From: Kofleriaceae bacterium
GTDB lineage: Bacteria > Myxococcota_A > Polyangia > Haliangiales > Haliangiaceae
Length of the DNA stretch: 64,000 bases
NCBI GenBank assembly: GCA_965215005.1
Contig: CBDCCZ010000006.1
Location: 64,001-128,000 of the forward strand
Reading direction: 5' to 3'
In this document: positions 34,779 through 50,474 of the stretch, one piece after another
How the letters are laid out: each line of letters begins with the position of its first letter
Numbering within the stretch: position 1 is the first letter of the stretch
The notes under the pieces: model-generated
Told to the model about the DNA's origin: nothing
What the model saw: the letters and a program-made list of their open reading frames with translations, nothing else
The model's database searches: none
Made by a program: the position numbers and the translations under genes

Positions 34779-37700
34779 CTATTTCGGCGTGGCGCTGGCG
34801 GCGCCGGCAATTACCGGCTCGGCGGAGGGCGCACGCGCCGCTGCCGGCTTGCGCTGCCAGCGGACGCCGGCGAGGGCGCGCCAGTCAGGGGTGCCGTAGC
34901 CCTCATCGGCGCCGAGGCCGCCGGCGATGAAGGCCGTCACCGAAGCGTCGATGGCGTAGCTGGCGCCGGCGAGGAGCTCGAGGTGATTGCGGTTGAACCG
35001 ACGCCACAGACGATCGGCCTCGGTGGCTCCCGCCAGGCTGGCGCTCAGCTCGATGGGCGGTCCGCCGCGGTCCTCGAAGCGGTAGCCCACGCCGAGATGC
35101 CAGAACAGCTCGTCATCGACGGTCAAGTCGATGAGCTGGCGCTGCCGACGCAGGCGGTAGCCAAGGTTGACCGCGGTGCGGACCGCGCCAAACCGGCGAC
35201 CGATGGCCAACTCCGGCGCCAGGCTGACGCCATCGCCGCGGAAGTCGCTCGCCGAGCCGAGCGGCGCGGTGACGCCGACGATGAGCGCCAGGTCGGCGCG
35301 GTGGCGCTGCTGCCGCAGGAATTGCACTTTGCTAACCAGGCGCAGATCTCCGAAGCCGCCACTCAGCTCATTCATCGGCGCGCCGGCGATGTCATCGGAG
35401 CCCTGCGATAGCACGACCGGTAGCTCGAGGCCGAGCTGCAGGCGGTCCCACAGCGCCACCGCACCGACTAAGCTGGCGGTGGTCCGCTGCCCGACCAGCG
35501 CGCCCGCGCGGACACGCTCGCCGGCGCTGCCGTCGTAAAGGACCAGTGGATCATTGGCGGTGCCGAGCCACAGACCGAGATTCCAGTGCAGATGCTCAGG
35601 AACCGCGGCCCACTCGACATCGAGCACGCCGTCCCGATCCATGGCCAGACGAAAGCGCTCCACCGAGAACGCATCGCTCTGTTGCGCCTTTGCCGGCGTG
35701 GCCAGTGCCATCACGAGCAGGGCCGCAGCGGCAATGGCCGCACTCCGCCGGCTTCTCAGGACCAGCAGCGCCAGCGCCAGCGCCACGGCCAGGCTCGAAG
35801 GCTCCGATCCGCCGGTGGAGCAACCGCCGCCGGTGACGCCGAAGCGGTCGTGGTAGCCGTCGCCGTTGGCGTCGTCGTCGCAGATGTCGCCGAGGCCATC
35901 GCCATCGAGGTCCTGCTGCGCGCCGTTGTCGGCGCTGGGGCAGTTGTCGAGCGCGTCCGGCACGCCGTCGGCATCGCTGTCCGCGGAGGACTCGTCCCCA
36001 GCATCGCAAGCGTCGCCGACTCCGTTCCGATCGCGGTCGCTCTGGTCCGGGTTGGCGACGTCGACGCAGTTGTCTACGTCATCCTCGATGCCATCGCCAT
36101 CGGCGTCTGGCGTCTCTACCGGCTCCTCGCCGTCGGGATCGCTCGGTTGATCGTCGGACGCGTCGTTGGGATCCCGCTCACCGGCGTCGACGCGGCCGTT
36201 GCGGTTGACGTCCTCGTCGCCATCGGTGACGCCGCCGCCATCGGTGTCGGCGCGGACCGCGCTGGTGGTGGTGCTCGCATGGCGATCGGACACGAAGTAG
36301 CCCGCCGCCAGATTGGTGTCAGCGCTGGGCACGGTCACGCCTCGCTCGGTGCCGTCGAACACGAGATCGTCGTCGCTGTCCGGGTCGAGCACGTTGATCG
36401 CGCCGTCGCCATCGGTGTCCTGGTTCCAGTTCGGCTCCTGGCCATCGATCACGCCGTCATCATCGCTGTCGCCATCCCGCGGGTCGGAGCCGGCGGCGAG
36501 CTCCTCGGCGTCACTGAGCCCATCGCCGTCGCTATCCTCCGGCGGCACGTCATCGTTGGGATCGTTCGGGTCGGTCTCGTGCGAGTCGACCGCGCCATCG
36601 TGGTTGGCGTCTTCGGCGCCATCGGCAACGCCGCCGCCATCGCTGTCGGCGGTGAGTGGATCGGTGGTGGACGCCGGGTCGGCATCCGCGACGAAGGTGC
36701 CTGCCAACAGGTCGGTGCCACGATCCGGCAGGGTGAGGCCGACTTCGGTGCCGTCGAACAAGCCGTCGTTGTCGCTGTCGGCATCGAGCGCGTTGCCGAG
36801 GCCATCGCCATCGCTGTCGGCGGCGGGCGCGGGCTCTTGACCGTCGATGATGCCATCGTCATCCGAGTCGCGGTCGAGTCGGTTGGTGCCGAGCTCGGCC
36901 TCGAAGGCATCGCTGGCGCCGTCGTCGTCGCTGTCGGTGTCGAGGTAGTCCGGGGTGCCGTCGCCGTCGGTATCGACTGGCGGTGTGCTGAGGTCGTCGT
37001 CGCCCGCCTCGATGCGATCGCTTATGCCATCGCCATCGGCGTCGGTGTCGAGGTAGTCGGGGATGCCGTCGCCGTCGTGGTCGCCGGTGCCCTCGTCGAG
37101 GTCGGCGATGCCGTCGCCGTCGGTATCGATGCGCCCGTCGTCAGCGGCGCGATTGGGATCGGTCTCGGCGCCGTCGACTCGGCCGTTGCGATTGGTGTCT
37201 TCGTCACCATCGGGCACGCCGCCGTTATCGCTGTCACGGTCGACCGGGCTGGTGGTGGTCGTCGGATCGCTGTCGGCGCGGAAGTTGCCAGCGCCGAGGT
37301 CGGTGCCCGGCGCCGGCGCGGTGAGGCCGAGCTCGGTGCCATCGCGCAGGCCGTCGCCGTCGGCGTCCGCGTCGAGCGCGTTGATCGCGCCGTCGCCGTC
37401 GGTGTCGTGGTTCCAGTTCGGCTCGTCGCCGTCGATGACGCCATCGTCGTCGCTATCGGCGTCGGTCGGCGAGGTGCCAAACCGGGTCTCCTCGGCGTCG
37501 GACAGGCCATCGCCATCGGTATCGACGGGCGGGGCGTCATCGGCGGCCACCGTGGGATCGGTTTCGCCGGGGTCGCGGGCGCCGTTCTTGTTGGTGTCCT
37601 CGGTGCCGTCGGCCACGCCGCCGCCATCGCTGTCGCGCAGCAGTGGGTTGGTGGTGCGACGCGGATCGGCGTCGGCGACGAACGCGCCAGCGCCGACGTC

Positions 37701-40700
37701 GGTGTCTGCGTCCGGCTCGGTGAGGCCGAGCTCGGTGCCGTCGAGCAGCCCGTCGTCGTCGGCATCCGGGTCGCGGGCGTTGATGAGGCCATCACCGTCG
37801 GTGTCGCTGCTCCAGTTGGGCTCGCGGCCGTCGAGAACACCGTCGTCGTCGCTGTCGGCATCGTGGGGATCGGTGCCGGCAGCGTGCTCTTCCGCATCCG
37901 AGAGGCCGTCGCCGTCGCTGTCGGTGGGCGTCGTGTCATCGCTTGAATTGTTCGGATCGGTGTCGCCGGCGCTGATGGCGCCGTCGTGATTGGGATCTTC
38001 GGCGCCATCGTCGACACCGCCGCCATCGCTGTCGGCGCGGGTCGGATCCGTCGTGGTCGACGGGTCGGCGTCGGCCACGAACGCGCCGACGCTGAGGTCG
38101 GTATCGGGATGCGGGCTGGTGAGGCCGACCTCGGTGCCGTCGAAGATGCCGTCGCCGTCGCTGTCGACATCGAGGGCGTTGATGAGGCCGTCGCCGTCGG
38201 TATCAGTCGTGGCGCCGGGCTCGGCACCGTCGGCGAGGCCATCGTCGTCGCTGTCGCCGTCGCGCGGATCGGTGCCGACGCGTGCCTCGTCGACATCGCT
38301 CATGCCGTCACCGTCGTCGTCTCGATCCCCGGCGTCGCATAGGCCGTCGCTGTCGAGGTCGGGTCCGTCGTTTCGCGGCTCGCTGCGACCCGAGAGGCAA
38401 TCCTCGCAGCCGTCGCGATCTGCGTCGCCGCAGACGAATCGATTGCGCGGATCGGAATCCAGGTCGTCGGCGACACCGTCGCCATCGGCGTCGACCTCGC
38501 CGGCATCGCAGATGCCATCGCCGTCGGTGTCGAGGCCATCATTGGCCGGCTGCGGGCTCCCGGTCATGGCGCAGTCGTCGCACGTGTCGGCGTCGGCGTC
38601 GCGGCAGACCAGCGGATTCGCAGGATCGCGGTCGAGAGCATCGGGGACCGTGTCGCCATCGTCGTCCGGGTCGCCGGCGTTGCACAGACCATCGAGGTCC
38701 GGGTCGTAGCCGTCGTTGTGCGGCGCGGGAGCGCCTTCGATTGCGCAGTCATCGCACAGGTCGGCGTCGCTGTCGCGGCAGCGGAGACGATCGAGCGGGT
38801 CGGAATCGAGCGCGTCGATGACGGTGTCGCCGTCGTCGTCATCATCGCCCGCATCACAGGTGCCATCGCTGTCGGTGTCGAGTCCGTCCATCGCCGGAGC
38901 GCTGGCGCCAGTGACGCTGCAATCGTCGCAGGAGTCGGCGTCGCTATCGCGGCACGCGAAGCGATTCAGCGGGTCGGAATCGCTGGCGTCGACGACATCG
39001 TCGTTGTCGTCATCGGCGTCGCCGAGGTCGCAGAGCCCGTCGCTATCGAAGTCGTCGCCATCGCTGGCCGGCGCGAAGACGCCGCCGACGGCGCAGTCGT
39101 CGCAGGTATCGCCGTCGCTGTCTCCGCAGCGCGAGGCCTGGGTGCGGTCGGTATCGACGTCGTCGGTGACGCCATCGCCGTCGGAATCGAGATCGAGGTA
39201 GTCGGGAGCGCTGTCGCTATCGGTGTCGACTTCTCCCTCGCTGCTGTCGGCGATGCCGTCGCCATCGGAGTCGACGTCGTACCAGCTGTCATCGCCATCG
39301 CCATCCGGGTCGCTGTTGCCGAGCGCCAAGCCGTCGGCGAGCTCGGTCGCGGTGTCGATGCCGTCACCATCGTCGTCCTGATCGCGCCAGTTGCCGATCA
39401 TGTCGAAGTCTGGATCGACGACACCCTCGACCTGGTCGAAGAGACCGTCATCGTCGCTGTCATCATCGAGGGCGTCGATGGTGCCGTCACCATCGGTATC
39501 GGTGCGGAAACCGCCGTCGGTCTCGACGAAATCGTCGATGCCATCGGCGTCGGTATCCGGATCGAACGGGTCGGTGCCGATGGAGCAGGACTCGTCGAAG
39601 GTCGCCAGGCCGTCGAAGTCATCGTCGACCGCCAGCGACAGGGCGTCGACCGACGCGCTGGTGCTGACCGTGGTCTTGACGGCGGCGTAGGTGTCGAGGA
39701 AGGACTCGTTGCCCTTGCCGTCGCCGTCGAAGTTGCCCCAAGCGCGGGCGTTGACGTTGGCGTCGGCCGGATCGGCCGGATTGCCGGCGCTAAGGCCATT
39801 GACGCCGGAGGCGGTGAGGCTCATCTCGCCGTTTGGCATGGGCTCGGCGTCGGCGGCGATCAAGCTGTCGTCCCAGTACATTTTCAGGCCGGTTCGCACG
39901 CCGTTGGCGGCCACCGAGAAGATGCGCATGCCCTCGAAGCTGGTCTCGATGTCGTTGCCGACGAAGTGGAACTCACCGACGTTGACGTAGACGACGCAGT
40001 CATACGACCCGTCCGGAACCGGCGCGCCGCTGTTGTCGGTACCGTTCCACGGCACCGCGTTGGCACCGGCGCTAACCGTGCCAACGATGAGCAGATCGTC
40101 CGGATCGGTGCGGTCGTAGACCGTGTCGCGATCGAGGTCGCAGACCAGGTTGTAGGTGCCGGCGACGTTGGAATCGAACTCGAACTGGCCGGTGCTCACG
40201 CCCGGCACCACGGCGTTGCAGCCGGTGGGTCCACCACGGAAGGCAAAGCCCGTTACCACCGGCGTGAGGGTGCCGTAGCGCGCGATCGCCGGCGGGTTGA
40301 GATACATCGGGTAGTACGGCGTGACCGCGTTACCGGCCACTGGGACGCTCTTGCCGGCCTGAGCGCCATCGACGCCGGTGGCGTTGCTGTTGATGGAGTA
40401 GCCATGGCCGGCCATGCCGTTTAGATCGAGCTCGACCACCGCATCGGTGGTCGGGCTGCCGCCGGGAACCAGCGCAAAGAAGCTGCCGTCGGAGGCGGCC
40501 TCGGCGCCGAAGCTGCCGGCGCTAAACTTCCAGTCGAGCGAGTAGAGGCGGCCCGGCTGAGCCGCGCCGGCGCCGGCGCAGCTCGAGCCGAGGACCGCGA
40601 TGTCCCAGCCGGTGAAGGTCTGCGTCGTGGAAAAGCGCAGCTCGTACGCGCCGGGCAGTCCGGCGGTCGGCGCGACCCGATCGCCCGAGGCAAGAGTGGC

Positions 40701-40973
40701 GATCAAGGTCCCGTCCGGAGCGGTGACCGCCATGGTGCCGGTGCCGGTCCAGGCGATGCACTCGTTGTCGGCGTCGAGGATGTCGACGTAGGCCACGGTG
40801 TTCACCTGCAGGCGCTGCCGAGCGCCCAGCTCCGCGGAGCCTTCCGCATGAGCGCTCGGTTGCCAGCTCATGACGGTGACGAGAGCCGAGGCGACGGCGG
40901 CGCTCAAGGTGCAAGTATGCAGATGCCTGCGAGGTCGATGCGGTCGCGTGGGCTTGTGCGCTGCGATGTTCAT
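34779..40973 (-). CDS. Very large surface protein: N-terminal domain, thrombospondin type-3-like Ca-binding repeats, internal MYXO-CTERM-like tag, second signal peptide, C-terminal beta-barrel
   Basis: Signal peptide ending AHA|EG; dozens of DxDxDG motifs; DNCP TSP3 units; [23 protein letters not shown]; TPAKA|QQ; barrel ending [13 protein letters not shown]. Confidence 0.85.
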
Positions 40974-41246
40974 GGGGGTCCTCGGCTCGATACCAGCTCG
41001 ATTAGCGTTTGCTCGACCAGCGCTCGTCGGCCCCGCGGTCGTCGTGCGGGGGATATAGGCACGCGTGGTCAGGGTGGGCGGATCCAACCGCCGGAATCGG
41101 CCGCAGGGGCGGCCAGCTGTACAGGCGGCCGCGCTTTTTTCATCGAGGGTGGGGAGCGTGGGGTACCGCAACCCTTGCGCTATCGCTGCGGCATTGGTTG
41201 ACTACCTGGTCCGCCTCTCTCCCACGGTTCCATGGAGGTCGCTGCG

Positions 41247-41522
41247 ATGAGTCGAATGGTTCAATGTGCAAAGCTTCAACGCGAGGCGCCCGGCCTCTCC
41301 TATCTGCCGTTCGACGATGAGCTCGGGCAGCGCATCTATGAGGAGGTTTCCGAGGAAGCCTGGCGCATGTGGCTCGAGCACTCAAAGATGATCGTCAACG
41401 AGTATCGGCTCGACCTAACCAGCGAAAAGGCCCACGAGCTGCTACGTGAGCAGTGCGAGTCGTTCTTCTTTGGTGAAGGCGCGGCGCTGCCGCCCGACTT
41501 CACCGCGCCGCCAGCAAAATGA
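41247..41522 (+). CDS. yggX: Oxidative damage protection / Fe(II) trafficking protein YggX
   Basis: MSRMVQCAKL…ELGQRIYEEVSEEAW…MIVNEYRL. Confidence 0.92.
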   Translation: MSRMVQCAKLQREAPGLSYLPFDDELGQRIYEEVSEEAWRMWLEHSKMIVNEYRLDLTSEKAHELLREQCESFFFGEGAALPPDFTAPPAK

Positions 41523-42964
41523 CGGAAGGTCTGGACACGACGGGGCCTCTAGCAGAGCCGGGCGCGATCGTGCTGGTGTCCTGCTATGAGCTCGGTCACC
41601 TGCCGCACGGCGTGGCCATGGCGGCAGGCTTTCTGCGGCGCGCAGGCTTTGCGCCGGTAACCGTCGACCTGTCCATCGAGAAGCTCGATGACGAAGCCGT
41701 TCGCGGCGCCTCGCTGGTAGCCATTTCGGTGCCCATGCACACGGCGCTGCGCCTCGCAGCGCCACTCATCGAACGCGTGCGTGCGCTCGCACCGGCGGCA
41801 GTCGTATGTTGCTACGGGGTTTACGCGCCGCTCAATGAAGCGTGGCTGCGACAGCTGGGCGTCGACTACGTCATTGGGGGAGAAGCCGAAGACGAGCTGG
41901 TCGCGCTCGCCACGGCTCTAGCCCAAGGTCGGCAGCCAACACCGCAGCTGGTCTCACTCGACAAGGTGCGATTTGCCGCGCCGCATCGCGAGCCGCCCGC
42001 ACTGCTGCAACGCCGCTTGCACAAGCACGCCCAGCTCGACCTCGGCAATGGCCAGCGGCGGCTCGTGGGCTACACCGAGACCACGCGCGGCTGCCTCGAT
42101 ACCTGCCGCCATTGCCCGATCCCGGCCGTGTATGGCGGGCGATTTTTCGCGGTTCCGCGCCAGGTGGTGTTGGCCGACATCGAGACCCAGCTCGCCGCTG
42201 GTGCCGAGCACATTACCTTTGGAGATCCAGATTTCTTGAATGGGCCCGGGCACGGGCTGGCCATCGCCGCCGAGCTTCATCGCCGCTGGCCACACGTCAC
42301 GTTCGACTTCACGGCGCAGGTGACGCACCTACTGCAGCAGCGTTCGCGGCTCCAAGAGCTGCCGGCGATGGGCTGCGCGTTCGTCGTGAGCGCGGTGGAA
42401 TCCCTAAGCGATACAGTGCTGGCTGCGCTGAAGAAGCGCCACCGTCGCGCGGCCGTCGAGGAATTGTTCGCTCTGGCTGACCAAGCGCATCTGGTGGTGC
42501 GGCCCACCTTCGTGACGTTTACGCCATGGACCAGCTTGGATGACGTGCGCGAGCTGGCTGAGTTTCTGGCTTGCTGGGGACTGGTCGATCACGTCGACCC
42601 CGTGCAGCTCTCGATTCGCTTGCTGGTGCCGCCGGGGTCGCTGCTGCTCAAAGCCGACGACACCCGCGGCGCCTTTGGGCCGCTCGACTCCGCCGCTCTC
42701 ACGCATCGATGGGTTCACGAGGATCCGCGCGTGGATGCGCTACAGCGCGCCATCGCGGCGCGGGTGGCGCTCGCTGCGCAGCGAGGCGATGACGCCCTCG
42801 ATGATAGTCACGCCGTGTTTTCCGCGATTCATGGGCTGATCTACGAGGCCCTTGGACAATCGCCACCAGAGCTGGTGATCCCGCGGCGCCGGGTGCCGCG
42901 GGTCACCGAGCCGTGGTTCTGTTGAAGCGAGCCCACCGAGAGCCAGTTCGGCTCTCTCGTTTGA
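41519..42964 (+). CDS. B12-binding-domain radical SAM protein of the CUAEP/CCAEP-tail family; predicted selenoprotein (TGA 42923-42925 = Sec)
   Basis: SCYELGH…ISVPMHTA B12-like domain; CLDTCRHC (CxxxCxxC); VTEPWFC-TGA-SEPTESQFGSLV-TGA. Confidence 0.85.
42926..42961 (+). promoter_or_regulatory. Candidate bacterial SECIS element
   Basis: Directly 3' of the in-frame TGA: upper stem GAGAGCC/GGCTCTC with loop AGTTC; possible lower stem AGCGAG/CTCGTT. Confidence 0.6.
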
Positions 42965-42965
42965 T

Positions 42966-44210
42966 CTACAAGAGTGGCGCAATGAAGAACTCGAGGGCGG
43001 CCGCGGCGCGGCGCAGCGCGTGGGTCACCGCGGCGCTGTCCGCGCCGTCGGCGAACACAAAGCCCATGTACGTGTTTCCTTCCGGCAGCGGCACGACGTG
43101 CTCCCCCAAACGCGCCGTGAGCACGACGTCGCGGATGAGCGGCATCACGGCCGCCGCGTCGATGCCGTCGATGCCGCGCAACACCCCGGCTTTCGGCACC
43201 GGCAGCATGTAAACGCCGCTGGCCCCGGAGCGCCGGCCCGCGAGAAGCTCGCCCACGTCGCGCCCAATGGCGTGGGCCAACAGGACCTCCGGCAGCGAAA
43301 CGCCCGCGAGCTCGAGAGTGCGGCCGCACAAGCCACCGATCGGCCGCGCCGCTAGCTCCAGGACCACCGGCTGCCCGCGATGCAGGCGCAGCTCGGCGTG
43401 AATGGGACCATTGACGACTCCAATGGCGCGGGCCGCCGCGGCCACCGCAGCAATGATCGCGGCTTGCTCGGGCGCGGAGCGCTGCGACGGCGTGACGTAG
43501 ATGGTTTCTGCGAACACCGGCCCCTCCAGCGGATCTGGTTTATCGAAGACGGCAATCGGCACCAGCCGCTCATGGTCTACCAGCGCCTCCACCGCGACCT
43601 CGTCGCCGTGCAAATATTCTTCGATCAAGATCAGCGCCGCGGCAGCTGGATTTTTGGCCTCGAGCTCTGGGTTTTCGAGCAGCTGACAGAGCCGCTGCAT
43701 GCGCGCCGCGAGCTCGCTGGAGTCATCAGCGCGCATCACGCCACGGCTGGCCGACAAATGCAGCGGCTTGATGACCACCGGAAAGCGCAGTGCCTCGGGC
43801 AAGCGACGGCTCTGACGCGGCACCACCGCAAACCGCGGCTGCGCGCATCCCGCTGCCGTGAGCGCCTGCCGCAGGCGCTGCTTATCGGCAGCCGCGCAGG
43901 TTGCCGCGACGGTGCCGTACCCGAGCCCCAACACCTCGGCGGCGCCAGCGGCGATGACTGCCGCATCCTCATCGAGGGCCAGAATTCCGGCCAGCGGTTT
44001 GGCGCTCGCGTGCTCGACGATCTGCTTCACGGCGCGCGTGGGATCGCGATAATCGAGCGGCCACGCGCCCTCGGGCCACAGCTCGGCCAGCTGATGACAG
44101 CGATCGGTGCCCACTGCCAATTCAATCTGCAACTGCGCCGCCGCACGTTCGAAGTCGCCAAGCGCATAGGCGCGCTTGGACGCGAGCAACAAAGCGACAG
44201 GCGCTGGCAT
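42966..44210 (-). CDS. ATP-grasp domain ligase
   Basis: DKQRLRQAL, FPVVIKPLHLSASRGV, ILIEEYLHGDEVAVE, HAELRL…VLELAARPIGG. Confidence 0.9.
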   Translation of the reverse strand: MPAPVALLLASKRAYALGDFERAAAQLQIELAVGTDRCHQLAELWPEGAWPLDYRDPTRAVKQIVEHASAKPLAGILALDEDAAVIAAGAAEVLGLGYGTVAATCAAADKQRLRQALTAAGCAQPRFAVVPRQSRRLPEALRFPVVIKPLHLSASRGVMRADDSSELAARMQRLCQLLENPELEAKNPAAAALILIEEYLHGDEVAVEALVDHERLVPIAVFDKPDPLEGPVFAETIYVTPSQRSAPEQAAIIAAVAAAARAIGVVNGPIHAELRLHRGQPVVLELAARPIGGLCGRTLELAGVSLPEVLLAHAIGRDVGELLAGRRSGASGVYMLPVPKAGVLRGIDGIDAAAVMPLIRDVVLTARLGEHVVPLPEGNTYMGFVFADGADSAAVTHALRRAAAALEFFIAPLL

Positions 44211-44236
44211 TGCCGCTGGTTTACCATCGCCGTTGC

Positions 44237-45319
44237 ATGCTGTCGCCCGGTGCCGAGTCGGTGGCGCTATTCCGGCAATTCCCAACGCTGTGCTCGCGTC
44301 TGCCGTGGGTGCATCTGGGCGCGTGGCCCACGCCGGTCGAGCCGCTGCGTCTGGCCAGCGGCTGCCAGCTGTGGGTCAAACGCGACGATGCCTGCAGCAG
44401 CCTCTACGGCGGCAACAAAGTGCGCACGCTGGAGGCAATGCTCGGCGTTGCCCGCGCATGCGGCGCGCAACGCATCTGGGCCACCGGCGCCTACGGCTCG
44501 AACCACGCGGTTGCAACCCTGGCGCACGCGCCCCGCGCCGGTCTGCAGGCCGGGGCCATCCTATTTCCGCAGCCAAGCTCGCCGCCGGCGCGTGCCAACC
44601 TCTCGGCCGCGCTCAGCCTTCGCCCTCACCTGCTCGCGCTCGCCAGCATTCTCGAGCTGCCCCTGGCCATGCATCGCGTTCGCCGAAATAGCCACGACTA
44701 CGTCATGCCTCCCGGTGGCGCCACGACCGAAGGCACCTTCGGCGCTCTCTCCGCGGCCTTCGAGCTCGCTACGCAGGTCGCCGCGCGCGAGTGCCCCCTG
44801 CCTCGTCGAGTCGTTATCGCGGTCGGCTCGACCTGCACCACGGCCGGTCTCCTTGCTGGACTTCACGCCGCTGCTCGCATGGGAGTGTGGCCGGGCGCGG
44901 TGCCCATCGTGCACAGCGTGCGGGTGACGCCGTGGCCAATCACCAGCCGCGCGCGCATCGCCTGGCTCGCGCAGCGCACGCTTCATCGACTCGAGCGGCT
45001 CGTCGGCGTCACGCTCGGTGTGAGCTACCGCGCCTTGCTGGCCAACCTCGTCGTCGATCGCCGCTTCATCGGCCGCGGCTACGGCCGTGCCACCCAAAGC
45101 GGTCGCCGCGCCCTCGCCCGGTTCGCCGACAGCGGCGCGCCCCCATTGGACTTGGTGTATTCGGCAAAATCCGCGGCCGCGCTACTCGCTTTGGCCAATC
45201 GCTCCCGCGGCCCACTCCTATATTGGGCAACCAAGTCGTCGGCCCCTCTGCCCATTGCAAGCGCCGCTGATGTCGCCGTCGCACCGGCGCGCGCCCGCCA
45301 TTGGCTCGAGCAGCCGTAG
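44237..45319 (+). CDS. PLP-dependent enzyme, D-cysteine desulfhydrase / ACC deaminase family
   Basis: PTP…LWVKRDD…YGGNKVRTLE, GSNHAVA, VGSTCTTAGL, LDLVYSAK. Confidence 0.88.
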   Translation: MLSPGAESVALFRQFPTLCSRLPWVHLGAWPTPVEPLRLASGCQLWVKRDDACSSLYGGNKVRTLEAMLGVARACGAQRIWATGAYGSNHAVATLAHAPRAGLQAGAILFPQPSSPPARANLSAALSLRPHLLALASILELPLAMHRVRRNSHDYVMPPGGATTEGTFGALSAAFELATQVAARECPLPRRVVIAVGSTCTTAGLLAGLHAAARMGVWPGAVPIVHSVRVTPWPITSRARIAWLAQRTLHRLERLVGVTLGVSYRALLANLVVDRRFIGRGYGRATQSGRRALARFADSGAPPLDLVYSAKSAAALLALANRSRGPLLYWATKSSAPLPIASAADVAVAPARARHWLEQP

Positions 45320-45431: not shown

Positions 45432-45781
45432 CTCGAGCTGATCATGACGGCGCCTATGGTTGTCGCGAGCTGGATCACCCTGCAGTATTTAGGGCTCCAC
45501 CGTCGACCCCGGCATCTTCGGGTCGGGCAACAAAACCCTTCACAATGTCGTCGGAGGTAGTCTAGGTGTATCTCAACGTGATGATCGAAGCACCGGTCGA
45601 ACCCATGAGTACGATAATAGAGAAACACGATACCGTCCGACAGCTCGTCGACAATGGTTGGATTCACCTGTTCGCGATGGACGCGAACGGGCGCGTTAGC
45701 CACAAGCACGCCGGTGACTCGTCGTGGTCGGCCATCGAGCATCCCCTTCAGGAGAACCAGGCGTGCGCCCAGGTCTCGTAA
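45432..45781 (+). pseudogene. dabA: Frameshifted, internally deleted 3' remnant of DabA (DUF2309) inorganic carbon transporter subunit
   Basis: Three frames: LELIMTAPMVVASWITLQY / STVDPGIFGSGNKTLHNVVGG / LNVMIEAP…IIEKHDTVRQLVDNGWIHLF. Confidence 0.85.
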
Positions 45782-46989
45782 AGCGCCTTGGAATCTTGGG
45801 AGGCGGGCAGTTGGCGAAGATGCTCGCAGAAGCGGCGCTGCGGCAGGGAATCGCGCCAACAGTGCTCGTGAGTGAGGCCTCCGACCCCGCGGCCATCGAC
45901 GGGGCCACCCTCATCGTCGGGTCGCTGGATGCGCCTGCCGCACTGTCTGAGCTGGCAGCTAGCTCAGACGTGCTCACGCTCGAGAACGAGTTCATGGACC
46001 TAGACCAACTGGGGCGAGTCCTAGAGCAACATTCTGGGACGGTATTGCGACCGGGCGTCGAAAGCATCGCTACCGCCCAGGACAAGCTTGCGCAGCGGGG
46101 ACTGTTTCAGCGTCTGGGAATTGCGACGGCGGAGTTCGATCTCGTCCGCGCTGACTCTCTAGCGAGCGATCTCCAGCGAGTGCGAAAACGCTTTCCGAAC
46201 GGGTTCGTGCTCAAGTGGTCGCGCTTTGGCTATGACGGCCGCGGCAACCTGTTGGTTCCTTCCGGTCGAGAGGTCCCGCTGGAAGAGCTGGAAGAGTTTT
46301 GCCGCCTTGGCGAAACCCGAGGAGCCACCATCTACGCGGAGCGGATGGTGGACTTCGAGTGCGAGCTAGCCATGGTGTCGACGCGCGCGGCCGATGGCGA
46401 TCAAGTCTATTACCCTCTCGTGATCAGTCGACAAGAGCGCGGCGTGTGCAGGGAAGTCTACGGCCCCGCATCGGCCGCCGGCTACGATGAAGACCTCGAA
46501 CGAGCCGCCCGCGCGACCATTCGCTCAATCGCCACCGAGCTCGACCTCACGGGCACCTTGGCAGTGGAGTTCTTCCTAGAGCGCGATGGGCGTCTTCTGG
46601 TGAACGAAATGGCTCCACGAGTGCATAACAGCGGGCACTACACGCTCTTTGGCCAAACCCCGAGCCAGTTCGACCTCCACGTACAAGCGGTGATCGGCGC
46701 GCCGTTGTCGAGACCGGAGCTGCGCGGCCTCGGCGTCATGCGAAACCTCTTGGGCCCGTGGACAACACCACAGAACGTTACTTGCACCGCCCCCGCCGAG
46801 GCGCCACCCGAAGGCACCACGTTGACGTGGTACGGCAAGCAGCAGGTGTCGCCCGGTCGTAAGATGGGTCATCTGAGCGGACGAGCTACCTCACTTCAAG
46901 CCGCAATGGACTTGCTGGAGGCCATGGCGAGCTATGAAGCGCGATTTTGGAGCACCGTGAGCAGCTCCAACGAGGAGACCTCGCCATGA
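45763..46989 (+). CDS. purK: N5-carboxyaminoimidazole ribonucleotide synthase
   Basis: [61 protein letters not shown] before GTG 45763. Confidence 0.93.
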
Positions 46990-47516
46990 CCATTGAGCCA
47001 CCCCGCGTAGCCATCATCATGGGCTCCGACTCCGACTGGCCAGTGATGAGAGCCGCCGCCGAAGCGCTGCGTGAGCTTGACGTGAGCTATGAGACAGCAG
47101 TGATCTCGGCTCACCGCATGCCGCAAGAGATGGCCGAGTTTGCCTCCAACGCAGCGGCCCGGGGCATCGCGGTGATCATCGCGGGTGCTGGCGGCGCGGC
47201 TCACCTGCCGGGAATGGTCGCGGCACACACCGAGCTGCCGGTGGTCGGAGTGCCCGTGCCGATTGGCCATCTACAGGGCATGGATGCGCTGCTATCTATC
47301 GTTCAGATGCCCAAAGGAGTTCCCGTTGCGAGCGTCGCCATCGGCGCGGCGTTTAACGCCGGTATATTGGCCGCGCAGATGCTTGCCTCTGGCGGCGTCG
47401 AGCCCGATCGGGCGCTATCGGAGCGGGTGCTAGCCTATAAGGCAAGACTGCGACAGGCCGCGGCCGCAAAGACGCTTCCGCCGATCTCGAGTGTCGAGGA
47501 GGACGCAACAGGATGA
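46986..47516 (+). CDS. purE: N5-CAIR mutase
   Basis: [40 protein letters not shown]. Confidence 0.96.
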
Positions 47517-48412
47517 GACTGAGTCATCTGCGCGCACTCGAGGCCGAAGCCGTTCGCATCTTGCGTGAAGTGGCTGCCGAGTGCGAGCGTCCCGTGTTGC
47601 TCTTCAGCGGCGGGAAAGACTCGATTGCCCTCTTGCGCCTCGCAGTCAAAGCGTTTCGGCCAGCGCGGCTGCCCTTTCCGATCTTGCACGTCGACACAGG
47701 GCACAACTTCCCCGAGATCATCGAATTTCGTGACCGCCTGGTGGAAGCTCTGGGGGAAACGCTCATCGTCGCGAAGGTGCAAGATCGGATCGACCAAGGC
47801 TTACTGACCGATGAGACCGGCCCCGGAGCGAGTCGCAATCGACTCCAGATACCCGTGCTTCTCGAGGCGATCGCTACTCATCGGTTCGATGCTGCCATCG
47901 GCGGCGCTCGACGAGATGAGGAGAAAGCGAGGGCAAAGGAGCGGGTTTTTAGCCACCGGGATCGACATGGCCAGTGGGATCCTAAAAATCAACGCCCGGA
48001 GCTTTGGTCGCTCTACCACGGCAAACTTCGCCGAGGCGAGCACTTACGAGTCTTTCCGCTGAGCAACTGGACCGAGCTCGATGTCTGGGAATACATCGCC
48101 GCGGAAGAGATCGAAGTTCCCGAGTTGTATACCGCAAGAATCCGAACCGTGTTCGAACGAAGCGGTCTTCTCTACTGTCCTGCGCCGTTCGTCCACCGAC
48201 TGCCATCAGAGACTCTATTTGAGACAAAGGCTCGGTTTCGCACTGTTGGAGACATGACTTGCACCTGCGCAGTTCGGTCCCACGCCGAGACACTCGAGGA
48301 GATCATCGCCGAAGTGCGGTCCAGCCGGATCACCGAACGCGGCGCCACTCGTGCCGATGACCGTATGAGTGATGCAGCAATGGAAGACCGCAAGCGCGAG
48401 GGCTACTTCTAA
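47513..48412 (+). CDS. cysD: Sulfate adenylyltransferase subunit 2
   Basis: [51 protein letters not shown]. Confidence 0.96.
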
Positions 48413-48419
48413 ATCCGCC

Positions 48420-50474
48420 ATGACCACTTCTCCGCTAGACCCGAGCACTCAAGCTCCTGCGAGCCTGCCCGATCAGCTGCGGCTCGTCACCGCGGGAAGC
48501 GTGGACGATGGCAAATCCACGTTGATCGGTCGCCTGCTCTTCGACAGCAAGGCGATCTTCGACGATCAGTGGGAACAAGTTCGGGAGGTGAGCGCGCGCC
48601 GCGGAGACGAGCGCGTCGACCTGGCCCTCGTGACAGATGGTCTCCGCGCTGAGCGCGAGCAGGGCATCACCATCGACGTCGCGTATCGATACTTCTCGAC
48701 CTCCAAGCGCAAGTTCATCATCGCAGATGCGCCGGGGCACGTTCAGTACACGCGAAACATGGTCACCGGCGCGAGCACTGCCGATTTAGCGATCGTGATC
48801 ATTGACGCGCGCAACGGGTTCGTCGAACAGAGCAAGCGCCACATGTTCTTGGCGAGCTTGCTCGGAGTTCCCCATCTCGTAATTGCCGTAAACAAGATGG
48901 ATCTCGTCGGCTACTCGGAAGCTGTTTTCGAAAGGATCAAGCTAGACGTATCCTCATGGTCGGCAAAGCTCGAAGTGCGCGACCTCACGTTCATCCCGAT
49001 TAGCGCGGTAGTGGGCGACAACGTCATCGAGCGGAGCGCGAACATGCCCTGGTACGGTGGGAGTAATCTGCTGCACCACCTCGAGACCGTTCACATCGCG
49101 TCCGACCACAATCTGATCGATCTCCGATTTCCTGTGCAGTGGGTAATTCGCCCCCAGTCAGACGCCTACCGAGACTATCGCGGTTACGCCGGCGTAGTGG
49201 CTAGCGGCGTCATGCGACCGGGCGATGAAGTTGTCATCCTGCCAAGAGGAACCACCACCCGCATCACGCGAGTGGAAACATTCGATGGACCACTCGCCGA
49301 GGCATTTCCTCCAATGGCCGTCACGGTGCACTTGAAGGATGCAGTAGACGTGTCCCGCGGAGACATGCTGTGCAGACCGCAAAATCTACCGCATATTGGA
49401 ATGCGACTCGATGCCATGGTGGCTTGGATGAGCCGTAACCCTCTCTCTATTGGGAAAAGTTATGCCCTGAAGCAGGGCACCAGATGGACGAAGGCCACCG
49501 TATCGAGCATTCAGTACGAGCTCAACGTCAACACGCTGCATCGCGAAAGTGCGCAAACGCTGGCGCTCAATGGTATTGGTCGCGTTCAGCTGCAAGCCAC
49601 AGCACCCATTCCCTATGACGCCTACACGCGCAATCGCACGACGGGATCATTTATTCTGGTGGACGAGGCCTCCGGCGAAACTGTCGGCGCTGGAATGCTC
49701 CTTCAGCCACACACCGAAGAAGTCTTGGCGTTACCGGCTAGCGCGGAAACCGACAGGAGCGCAGGGGACGGTCGCCCTGGACTCTTCGTCACGGGTACTG
49801 ACACCGGAGTCGGAAAGACTGTGGTGAGTTGCGCTCTCGTCACAGCGCTCCGCAAGCAACAAGTTCGTGCCGTCGGCATGAAGCCCATCGCTTCCGGATG
49901 CGAAGCGACCCCCGAAGGACTGCGAAACGACGACGCAAGACTACTGCAGGCTGCCAGTGGAGTTAACGACTATGACCTCGTCAACCCCATTGCGTTCTTG
50001 CCGCCAATCGCGCCGCACATCGCGGCGGAACAAGTTGGGCAATCGATCTCGCTGGCCGCAATCGAGGTTGCCTTCCAGCGCCTCGCCGAGGATGCCGAAT
50101 TCATCGTCGTGGAGGGCGCAGGAGGCTACCGCGTGCCGCTTGCGACCGGCGGGCCGACCATCGCCGAGATTCCCAAGCGCTTGGGCCTCGGGGTGCTACT
50201 CGTCGTGGGCATCCGTGTTGGCTGTCTGAGCCACGCGATCTTGACCGCAGAGGCCATTCGCGCAGATGGATTAGAGCTCGTGGGATGGGTGGCGAACTGC
50301 CCAGACTCAACCGTTCTCGAAATAGACCGGCAAATCGCCACGCTCGCGGCCCACCTGGCCGCTCCGCTGCTGGGCGTCATCCCTTCACTAAAGCTCCGCG
50401 ACGAGAGAGACGCAAGCGTGGCGCATTCGTATCTGCACCTGCAACCGCTACTGTCGCGCCTAAAGGCGAAGTAA
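48420..50474 (+). CDS. cysN-bioD: Fusion of sulfate adenylyltransferase GTPase subunit CysN and dethiobiotin synthetase BioD
   Basis: GSVDDGKSTLIGRL, EREQGITIDVAYRYF, NKMD, ETVGAGM; then FVTGTDTGVGKT, KPIASG, APHIAA, VVEGAGG, GCLSHAILT, GWVAN in one uninterrupted frame. Confidence 0.92.
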   Translation: MTTSPLDPSTQAPASLPDQLRLVTAGSVDDGKSTLIGRLLFDSKAIFDDQWEQVREVSARRGDERVDLALVTDGLRAEREQGITIDVAYRYFSTSKRKFIIADAPGHVQYTRNMVTGASTADLAIVIIDARNGFVEQSKRHMFLASLLGVPHLVIAVNKMDLVGYSEAVFERIKLDVSSWSAKLEVRDLTFIPISAVVGDNVIERSANMPWYGGSNLLHHLETVHIASDHNLIDLRFPVQWVIRPQSDAYRDYRGYAGVVASGVMRPGDEVVILPRGTTTRITRVETFDGPLAEAFPPMAVTVHLKDAVDVSRGDMLCRPQNLPHIGMRLDAMVAWMSRNPLSIGKSYALKQGTRWTKATVSSIQYELNVNTLHRESAQTLALNGIGRVQLQATAPIPYDAYTRNRTTGSFILVDEASGETVGAGMLLQPHTEEVLALPASAETDRSAGDGRPGLFVTGTDTGVGKTVVSCALVTALRKQQVRAVGMKPIASGCEATPEGLRNDDARLLQAASGVNDYDLVNPIAFLPPIAPHIAAEQVGQSISLAAIEVAFQRLAEDAEFIVVEGAGGYRVPLATGGPTIAEIPKRLGLGVLLVVGIRVGCLSHAILTAEAIRADGLELVGWVANCPDSTVLEIDRQIATLAAHLAAPLLGVIPSLKLRDERDASVAHSYLHLQPLLSRLKAK

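Follow-up and report, generated by a model that had tools for sequence, protein, structure and literature searches.

What does the radical S-adenosylmethionine (SAM) selenoprotein of the CUAEP/CCAEP-tail family make, and which of the genes beside it take part? The question is raised by a compact locus (41247..45319) in a stretch of 64,000 nt from a Kofleriaceae bacterium (positions 64,001 to 128,000 of contig CBDCCZ010000006.1, assembly GCA_965215005.1), called the window below. Four genes lie there with almost no gaps (Table 1): yggX, the radical SAM gene (rSAM), a gene for an ATP-grasp ligase and a gene for a pyridoxal phosphate (PLP) enzyme. The initial annotation joined all four into one selenium/sulfur pathway. 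The analysis points to a smaller set. The rSAM, the ligase and YggX recur together across many phyla and likely make a small molecule. This three-component module around a catalogued selenoenzyme is real, widespread and undescribed in the literature searched.

The firmest association is between the rSAM and the ligase. Neighbours were counted within 7 kb of 80 rSAM genes in related loci from 79 genomes, kin included; because kin are not independent, we give counts and no p-values. The ligase gene adjoins the rSAM gene in 40 of the 80 loci (with a further partial match at the edge of L081) and has the same orientation in 32 of these 40. The other 40 loci belong to 39 genomes, of which 35 carry a ligase orthologue (E≤3.6e-55); two of the four genomes that lack a match are assemblies of 1.4 and 1.7 Mb. 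Overall, the ligase is present in 75 of the 79 rSAM genomes. When the unpublished genome G254 is omitted, it is found in 34 of 38 non-adjacent genomes, and the count for YggX becomes 32/79. In a sample of 251 genomes from the phylum of the source genome, the rSAM and the ligase are confined to an identical set of four (one of which, G244, is probably the same genome as L063), and among 201 Chloroflexota genomes the rSAM occurs in 50, the ligase in 60 and both in 48. Among 80 metagenome loci with the ligase, an independent set in which many loci are short, the rSAM is found in 49, YggX in 42, an Nfu/IscA-type gene in 13 and the PLP gene in one. Moreover, in a genome of the same family with the same upstream genes (G149), the rSAM and the ligase are jointly absent from the equivalent chromosomal spot. 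The pair is gained or lost as a unit. Mirror trees of 83 rSAM/ligase pairs correlate with r of 0.64, and 32 of 56 supported rSAM splits recur in the ligase tree, but we do not use this correlation as proof because kin share trees. Since the link between the rSAM and the ATP-grasp gene holds across phyla, the compact uncharacterised pathway of the initial annotation is well supported for the rSAM, the ligase and YggX, which recur together; the PLP gene falls outside it.

The third member of the module is an iron helper. YggX of the source genome, the sole match found there, scores 118 bits on NF003817 (cut-off 74), carries the conserved Cys7 and agrees with the definition of PRK05408. A yggX gene is found near the rSAM in 33 of the 80 loci and a gene for an NfuA-like or Nfu-domain protein in another 18, and the two sets do not overlap. 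In Chloroflexota, 34 of 35 strong YggX matches (E<1e-29, a count that leaves out 11 weaker matches) lie in rSAM genomes. Sixteen rSAM genomes there have no strong YggX, and in all 15 of the 15 that were checked an NfuA-like gene adjoins the ligase. YggX is not exclusive to the module, since in the phylum of the source genome it occurs in 78 of 251 genomes, nearly all of which lack the module. Many module YggX proteins (L022, L026, L029, L033, L052, L086, L121, L127 and others) have an N-terminal extension with an extra cysteine near the start, a feature absent from YggX of the source genome. In one lineage, the Methylomirabilota-type loci (L010, L012, L025, L027, L065 and L071), further genes follow a few kilobases downstream of the rSAM; these we take to resemble the bacillithiol enzymes BshA and BshC.

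The PLP gene behaves differently. Its product has the PALP fold and exceeds the cut-off of no named family (the best, CuyA, gives 125 versus 450 bits); it fails the score cut-offs of D-cysteine desulfhydrase (PRK03910) and CuyA. It shares the GGNK lysine motif and the SNH and GST motifs with the D-cysteine desulfhydrase/CuyA/1-aminocyclopropane-1-carboxylate (ACC) deaminase family and aligns with PDB entry 7ysk (E 1.5e-23), with a YS motif common to both. The gene is near the rSAM in two of 80 loci, both from close relatives. Its close orthologues (E<1e-70) occur in 19 of the 251 genomes of the phylum, three with the rSAM and 16 without it. One genome (G164) has the rSAM and the ligase with no PLP match at E≤1e-40, and in G149 the PLP gene sits directly behind yggX with no rSAM–ligase pair between them. 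The PLP gene stays with the chromosome, is inherited independently of the module and is a local neighbour only. These counts, together with the single case among the metagenome loci, largely refute a general pathway that includes a PLP desulfhydrase.

The rSAM belongs to a catalogued selenoprotein family. It scores 574.6 bits on NF040546 (cut-off 500), even when ended at the TGA codon, and its tail reads ...EPWFC-TGA-SEPTESQFGSLV-TGA. It shares with this family the CxxxCxxC motif, which is invariant in an alignment of 125 sequences, and the C-(U/C)-x-E-P tail (here WFC-TGA-SEP); the tail is C-U-S-E-P rather than C-U-A-E-P, and the closest relatives are alike in this. The passage in which the family is described calls it an uncharacterised selenoprotein and gives neither partner genes nor a function (10.1101/2022.07.06.499078, accessible part). 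Among the 77 loci that extend to the tail, the codon at the selenocysteine (Sec) position is TGA in 59 and a cysteine codon in 18. The source genome encodes selA, selB, selD and tRNA-Sec. For selA, 50 of the 80 loci were covered, namely every one of the 18 with a Cys tail and 32 of the 59 with a TGA tail; the gene is present in 30 of 32 TGA-tail genomes versus 12 of 18 Cys-tail genomes. A 7-bp stem of a predicted Sec insertion sequence (SECIS), located 13–31 nt 3′ of the TGA, keeps a mean of 6.33 pairs in 58 TGA tails versus 3.95 in 19 Cys tails; slid registers pair only at 3.0–3.7, several pair types occur at each stem position, and the local fold has a z of −2.2. The alternation of Cys and TGA, the sel genes with tRNA-Sec and the covarying hairpin therefore argue for Sec read-through. 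The TGA very likely encodes Sec, in agreement with the sequence features of bacterial selenoproteins.

The nearest characterised relative of the rSAM is ArsL, which forms the C–As bond of arsinothricin, and not a B12 methylase. The ArsL family model (NF040542) ranks second with 264 bits against a cut-off of 450, and no other model exceeds 65 bits. Alignment with an annotated ArsL shows 33% identity over residues 18–408 (about 390 residues, E 3e-70), and of 90 highly conserved positions of the rSAM family 59 are identical in both ArsL-type sequences compared. Both enzymes have a two-domain layout and a C-terminal cysteine tail. The ArsL tail, RCCLKC, contains three cysteines, whereas that of the rSAM, WFC-U, contains two adjacent Cys/Sec residues and is preceded by about 50 extra residues. 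ArsL is encoded in an ars cluster, in contrast to the rSAM, which has no arsM, arsQ, arsR or arsN context and is accompanied by the ligase and YggX or NfuA instead. ArsL splits SAM into methylthioadenosine and an iron-bound aminocarboxypropyl (ACP) species, and As(III) bound to the C-terminal cysteines attacks the latter; ArsL is the only CxxxCxxC enzyme described as forming an ACP radical (10.1101/2024.02.01.577332). These cysteines are required for binding of the As(III) acceptor (10.1101/2024.02.01.577332; accessible part of 10.64898/2026.04.29.721666). According to one section of a review (PMC13598754, section 5.1), the tail mutant MCCA is the best catalyst on methylarsenate; going by its name alone, we read this mutant as retaining just two adjacent cysteines, as in the rSAM tail. 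The arsinothricin cluster arsQML is described as narrow in range in the accessible part of PMC8552651. The initial annotation had labelled the rSAM a B12 enzyme. This label is probably misleading, because the main text on the reconstitution and assay of ArsL names no cobalamin (10.1101/2024.02.01.577332). The family calls of the initial annotation otherwise hold, with YggX, rSAM, ATP-grasp and the PALP fold all recovered by NCBIfam and Pfam scores.

By its domains, predicted fold and catalytic residues, the ligase fits an L-amino acid ligase of the ATP-grasp type. It contains the Pfam domains ATP-grasp_4 and LAL_C2, matches PDB entry 3vot with a profile E of 9e-71, and its structure model (predicted local distance difference test score, pLDDT, of 93.5) superimposes on that entry with a TM score of 0.84. 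It shares with the L-amino acid ligases (BL00235/PDB 3vot, BacD/YwfE, RizA and LdmS) the fold, the LAL_C2 domain and the Lys, Glu and Arg of the ATP-grasp site; identity in the structural match is 23%, and no family model is above its cut-off. The distinctive feature of the ligase family is an invariant cysteine, Cys295, in the loop after the catalytic arginine (six residues after Arg289), where 3vot has none. The position is cysteine in 75 of 76 genome sequences and TGA in the remaining one, and cysteine in 80 of 80 metagenome loci, a count in which one of the four search patterns includes the residues directly before it. In LdmS, the pocket for the side chain of the activated amino acid is lined by residues just past the catalytic arginine (PMC9486568, accessible part), and the placement of Cys295 suggests by analogy that the ligase may handle a thiol-reactive side chain. 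The TGA-bearing orthologue (L023:8428-9651, plus strand) has this codon at the cysteine of the GGL-C motif in a genome with selA and is a probable ATP-grasp selenoprotein with Sec at this position; no clear SECIS was found after its TGA (local fold z −0.8). A single record, P0123 (1176 residues), is a ligase orthologue fused to both a complete sulfite reductase hemoprotein and a PSP1-like domain, and its sequence reads cleanly. A formyltransferase was considered as a further module member and set aside: it is near eight of the 80 loci, all in Chloroflexota, and the source genome has only distant matches.

Taken together, these features suggest a pathway in which ArsL-type ACP transfer to an atom held on the Cys-Sec tail is followed by peptide ligation, a reading to which we give a probability of roughly 0.4. 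The rSAM would transfer ACP from SAM to a soft atom bound by the predicted Cys-Sec tail, the ligase would then couple the resulting amino acid to another, and YggX or NfuA would supply or guard iron or an Fe–S cluster. Confidence differs between the parts. It is strong for Sec insertion in the rSAM and moderate for ArsL-type ACP chemistry that would proceed without cobalamin, which is proposed because no other characterised family comes nearly as close as ArsL; it is likewise moderate for YggX or NfuA supplying or protecting iron or an Fe–S cluster, and weak to moderate for a ligase that uses the rSAM product and grips its heteroatom side chain with Cys295. Given the ACP mechanism, a trivalent arsenic species, the only acceptor with biochemical precedent, has a little under an even chance. 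Sulfur or selenium stands somewhat below even odds on the same premise and fits the gene context better: it matches the Fe–S surroundings, alongside which the clean-looking ligase–sulfite reductase fusion may be cited. Homocysteine has other cellular sources, and a sulfur or selenium acceptor would for this reason explain how the ligase persists in genomes without the rSAM. A selenium- or sulfur-containing product of the module is possible. In its full form, this version has a widespread selenoenzyme load sulfur or selenium on its Cys-Sec arm and make (seleno)homocysteine, from which a Cys/Sec-dependent ligase would form a thiol or selenol dipeptide for iron and Fe–S trafficking with YggX or NfuA; as a whole we regard it as rather unlikely. 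If true, ArsL-type organometallic ACP transfer would be no arsenic speciality, with the enzyme present in a quarter of the sampled Chloroflexota, and YggX would gain a concrete biochemical partner.

Several observations weigh against this pathway, and its arsenic form in particular lacks genomic support. Eleven ars-cluster proteins (ArsC and Acr3 not among them) used as queries matched six of 141 module loci, namely four ArsB-like proteins of one genus, one ArsM-like protein and one weak match, and none of the 80 metagenome ligase loci. Both ArsL-type genes inspected sit inside ars clusters, unlike the module. ArsM is found in just 24 of 50 module genomes, with no match over the cut-off in the source genome, and no exporter or resistance gene recurs among the neighbours of the rSAM loci and the metagenome ligase loci. 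The enzymes themselves also differ, as 31 of the 90 conserved positions of the rSAM family, including an invariant PMH motif, are not those of ArsL, and the tail offers two thiols or selenols, not three. The ATP-grasp protein encoded with an RCCLKC-tail rSAM in a Priestia ars cluster is not a ligase orthologue (23% identity). Lastly, a CUAEP rSAM is missing from 12 of the 60 Chloroflexota genomes that carry the ligase: 11 give no match at E≤1e-6 and one only distant rSAMs. All 13 ligase loci of these genomes (the L139-L151 group) have an NfuA-like gene beside the ligase. The ligase is therefore not in every case dependent on the rSAM, and the helper has ties to both enzymes.

The last observation underlies what we consider the most serious competitor to ACP transfer followed by ligation, although it is unlikely. 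Here the ligase and the iron helper would form the core, the ligase would modify YggX or NfuA or make a ligand for iron or Fe–S clusters, and the rSAM would be an accessory lost in some lineages. Besides the genomes without the rSAM, this would account for the division of Chloroflexota rSAM genomes between strong YggX and NfuA-like neighbours of the ligase, for the 30 loci with a non-adjacent rSAM, where YggX adjoins the ligase in 16 and an NfuA-like gene in four more, and for the 26 well-flanked metagenome loci, where YggX or an Fe–S carrier is found in 23 versus the rSAM in 19. It is harder to reconcile with loci in which YggX or Nfu stays by the rSAM with the ligase elsewhere (e.g. L032, L064, L068, L083, L008 and L039) and with the abundance of YggX without the module in the phylum of the source genome. 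Apparent ligase–YggX fusions (P0154, P0160 and the fragments P0148, P0150, P0153 and P0156) were rejected as Rosetta-stone evidence, and so were the ligase–rSAM (P0125) and YggX–rSAM (P0129) fusions. Parts of all these sequences are garbled in a way typical of assemblies with frameshifts, and the records were counted as adjacency only. Nor is the ligase simply a glutathione substitute, as GshB is over its cut-off in four of five module genomes, the source genome included.

A different objection concerns the rSAM chemistry. The enzyme, whose structure model is confident (pLDDT 94.7), could be a conventional one, dependent on 5′-deoxyadenosyl or cobalamin chemistry, that modifies the dipeptide product of the ligase; its Cys-Sec tail would then serve as a redox arm or bind a metal. 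Its N-terminus matches the Pfam B12-binding domain (36.9 bits, cut-off 32.1), its fold matches include AprD4, MgmA, TsrM and OxsB, the family-specific invariant residues M73, H74 and H198 differ from ArsL, and a dipeptide-first order would allow the ligase to persist without the rSAM. All the same, every B12-rSAM family model stays at or below 65 bits against 264 for ArsL, and ArsL, for whose assay no cobalamin is named, aligns across the same N-terminal region, which leaves conventional chemistry fairly improbable. We consider it still less probable that the three genes are a co-inherited iron or oxidative-stress set with unrelated reactions. Gene order and orientation vary, the ligase is non-adjacent in half of the loci, and NfuA is a general Fe–S carrier under oxidative stress (PMC8593673, accessible part); set against this, the rSAM and the ligase match almost genome for genome in two phylum samples, are jointly absent from one chromosomal spot and both show the alternation of Cys and TGA. 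Least probable is one pathway of all four genes. Their packing is as tight as the initial annotation held (the ATGA overlap and the gaps of 1 and 26 nt were all re-measured), and the order yggX–rSAM–ligase–PLP is kept in the close relatives L007, L063/G244, G089 and L181, but the scarcity of the PLP gene at rSAM and ligase loci, its many orthologues in genomes without the rSAM and the gene contents of G164 and G149 speak against it. Since the rSAM and ligase genes are convergent and the ligase and PLP genes divergent, the four do not form one operon or transcript.

In searches that left subscription journals mostly uncovered, the only relevant item for CUAEP, CCAEP or NF040546 was the family description cited above, and no paper was found that combines YggX, radical SAM and ATP-grasp, or a bacterial selenoprotein and ATP-grasp. 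The literature on ArsL and ATP-grasp yielded nothing on this module, though bioRxiv supplements (e.g. ArsL family figures) may mention the family. Neither CUAEP nor ATP-grasp occurs in the accessible main text of a 2026 selenoproteome review (PMC13188914). NF040546 is a large selenoprotein family without an assigned function. Its constant partnership with a ligase, and with either YggX or NfuA as helper, makes it a directly assayable three-protein system. This system may lead to a Cys/Sec-using ligase and to a new peptide of organoarsenic, thiol or selenol type from abundant uncultured bacteria.

Table 1. Features of the locus in coordinates of the window
Feature	Position	Strand	Description
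yggX	41247..41522	+	Fe(II)-trafficking/oxidative damage protection protein, 91 aa; third member of the module
rSAM	41519..42964	+	CUAEP/CCAEP-tail radical SAM (seleno)protein, 481 aa, TGA as predicted Sec469; ArsL-related
CxxxCxxC [4Fe-4S] motif of rSAM (C192, C196, C199)	42092..42115	+	from translation
In-frame TGA of rSAM	42923..42925	+	predicted selenocysteine, Cys-Sec tail WFC-U-SEP
Predicted SECIS hairpin	42938..42956	+	7-bp stem GAGAGCC/GGCTCTC, loop AGTTC
ATP-grasp ligase	42966..44210	-	L-amino-acid-ligase-like, 414 aa; core partner of the rSAM
Ligase Cys295, R-x-I-G-G-L-C loop	43326..43328	-	invariant across the family
PLP enzyme	44237..45319	+	D-cysteine desulfhydrase/ACC deaminase family; local neighbour outside the conserved module

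The end of yggX overlaps the start of the rSAM gene in the ATGA at 41519-41522. The extended rSAM frame stops at 42964, 1 nt from the ligase stop at 42966 on the minus strand, and the ligase ATG (44210, minus strand) is separated by 26 nt from the divergent PLP ATG (44237, plus strand). The start codons assigned are the likeliest by homology.

The Priestia ars cluster mentioned above lies on a plasmid (NZ_CP064271.1) and holds both the unrelated ATP-grasp gene (L137:1477-2700) and the RCCLKC-tail rSAM. The stretch inspected carries no annotated arsM, and the cluster is a possible arsinothricin-type peptide pathway.

Divergent from yggX, the window has an open reading frame (ORF) of 2130 residues with long Asp-rich repeats (34779-41171, minus strand), probably a surface protein. 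Downstream, a 71-residue ORF (45566-45781, plus strand) matches only the last 31 positions of DabA (PF10070) and is likely a remnant. The ordinary housekeeping genes purK-like, purE and cysD (45724-48412, plus strand) also lie beyond the four genes. Finally, a single ORF (48390-50474, plus strand) encodes a CysN domain (residues 28-443) and, after it, the dethiobiotin synthase domain BioD (466-636); each exceeds its NCBIfam cut-off, and the ORF is either an unusual fusion or an artefact.

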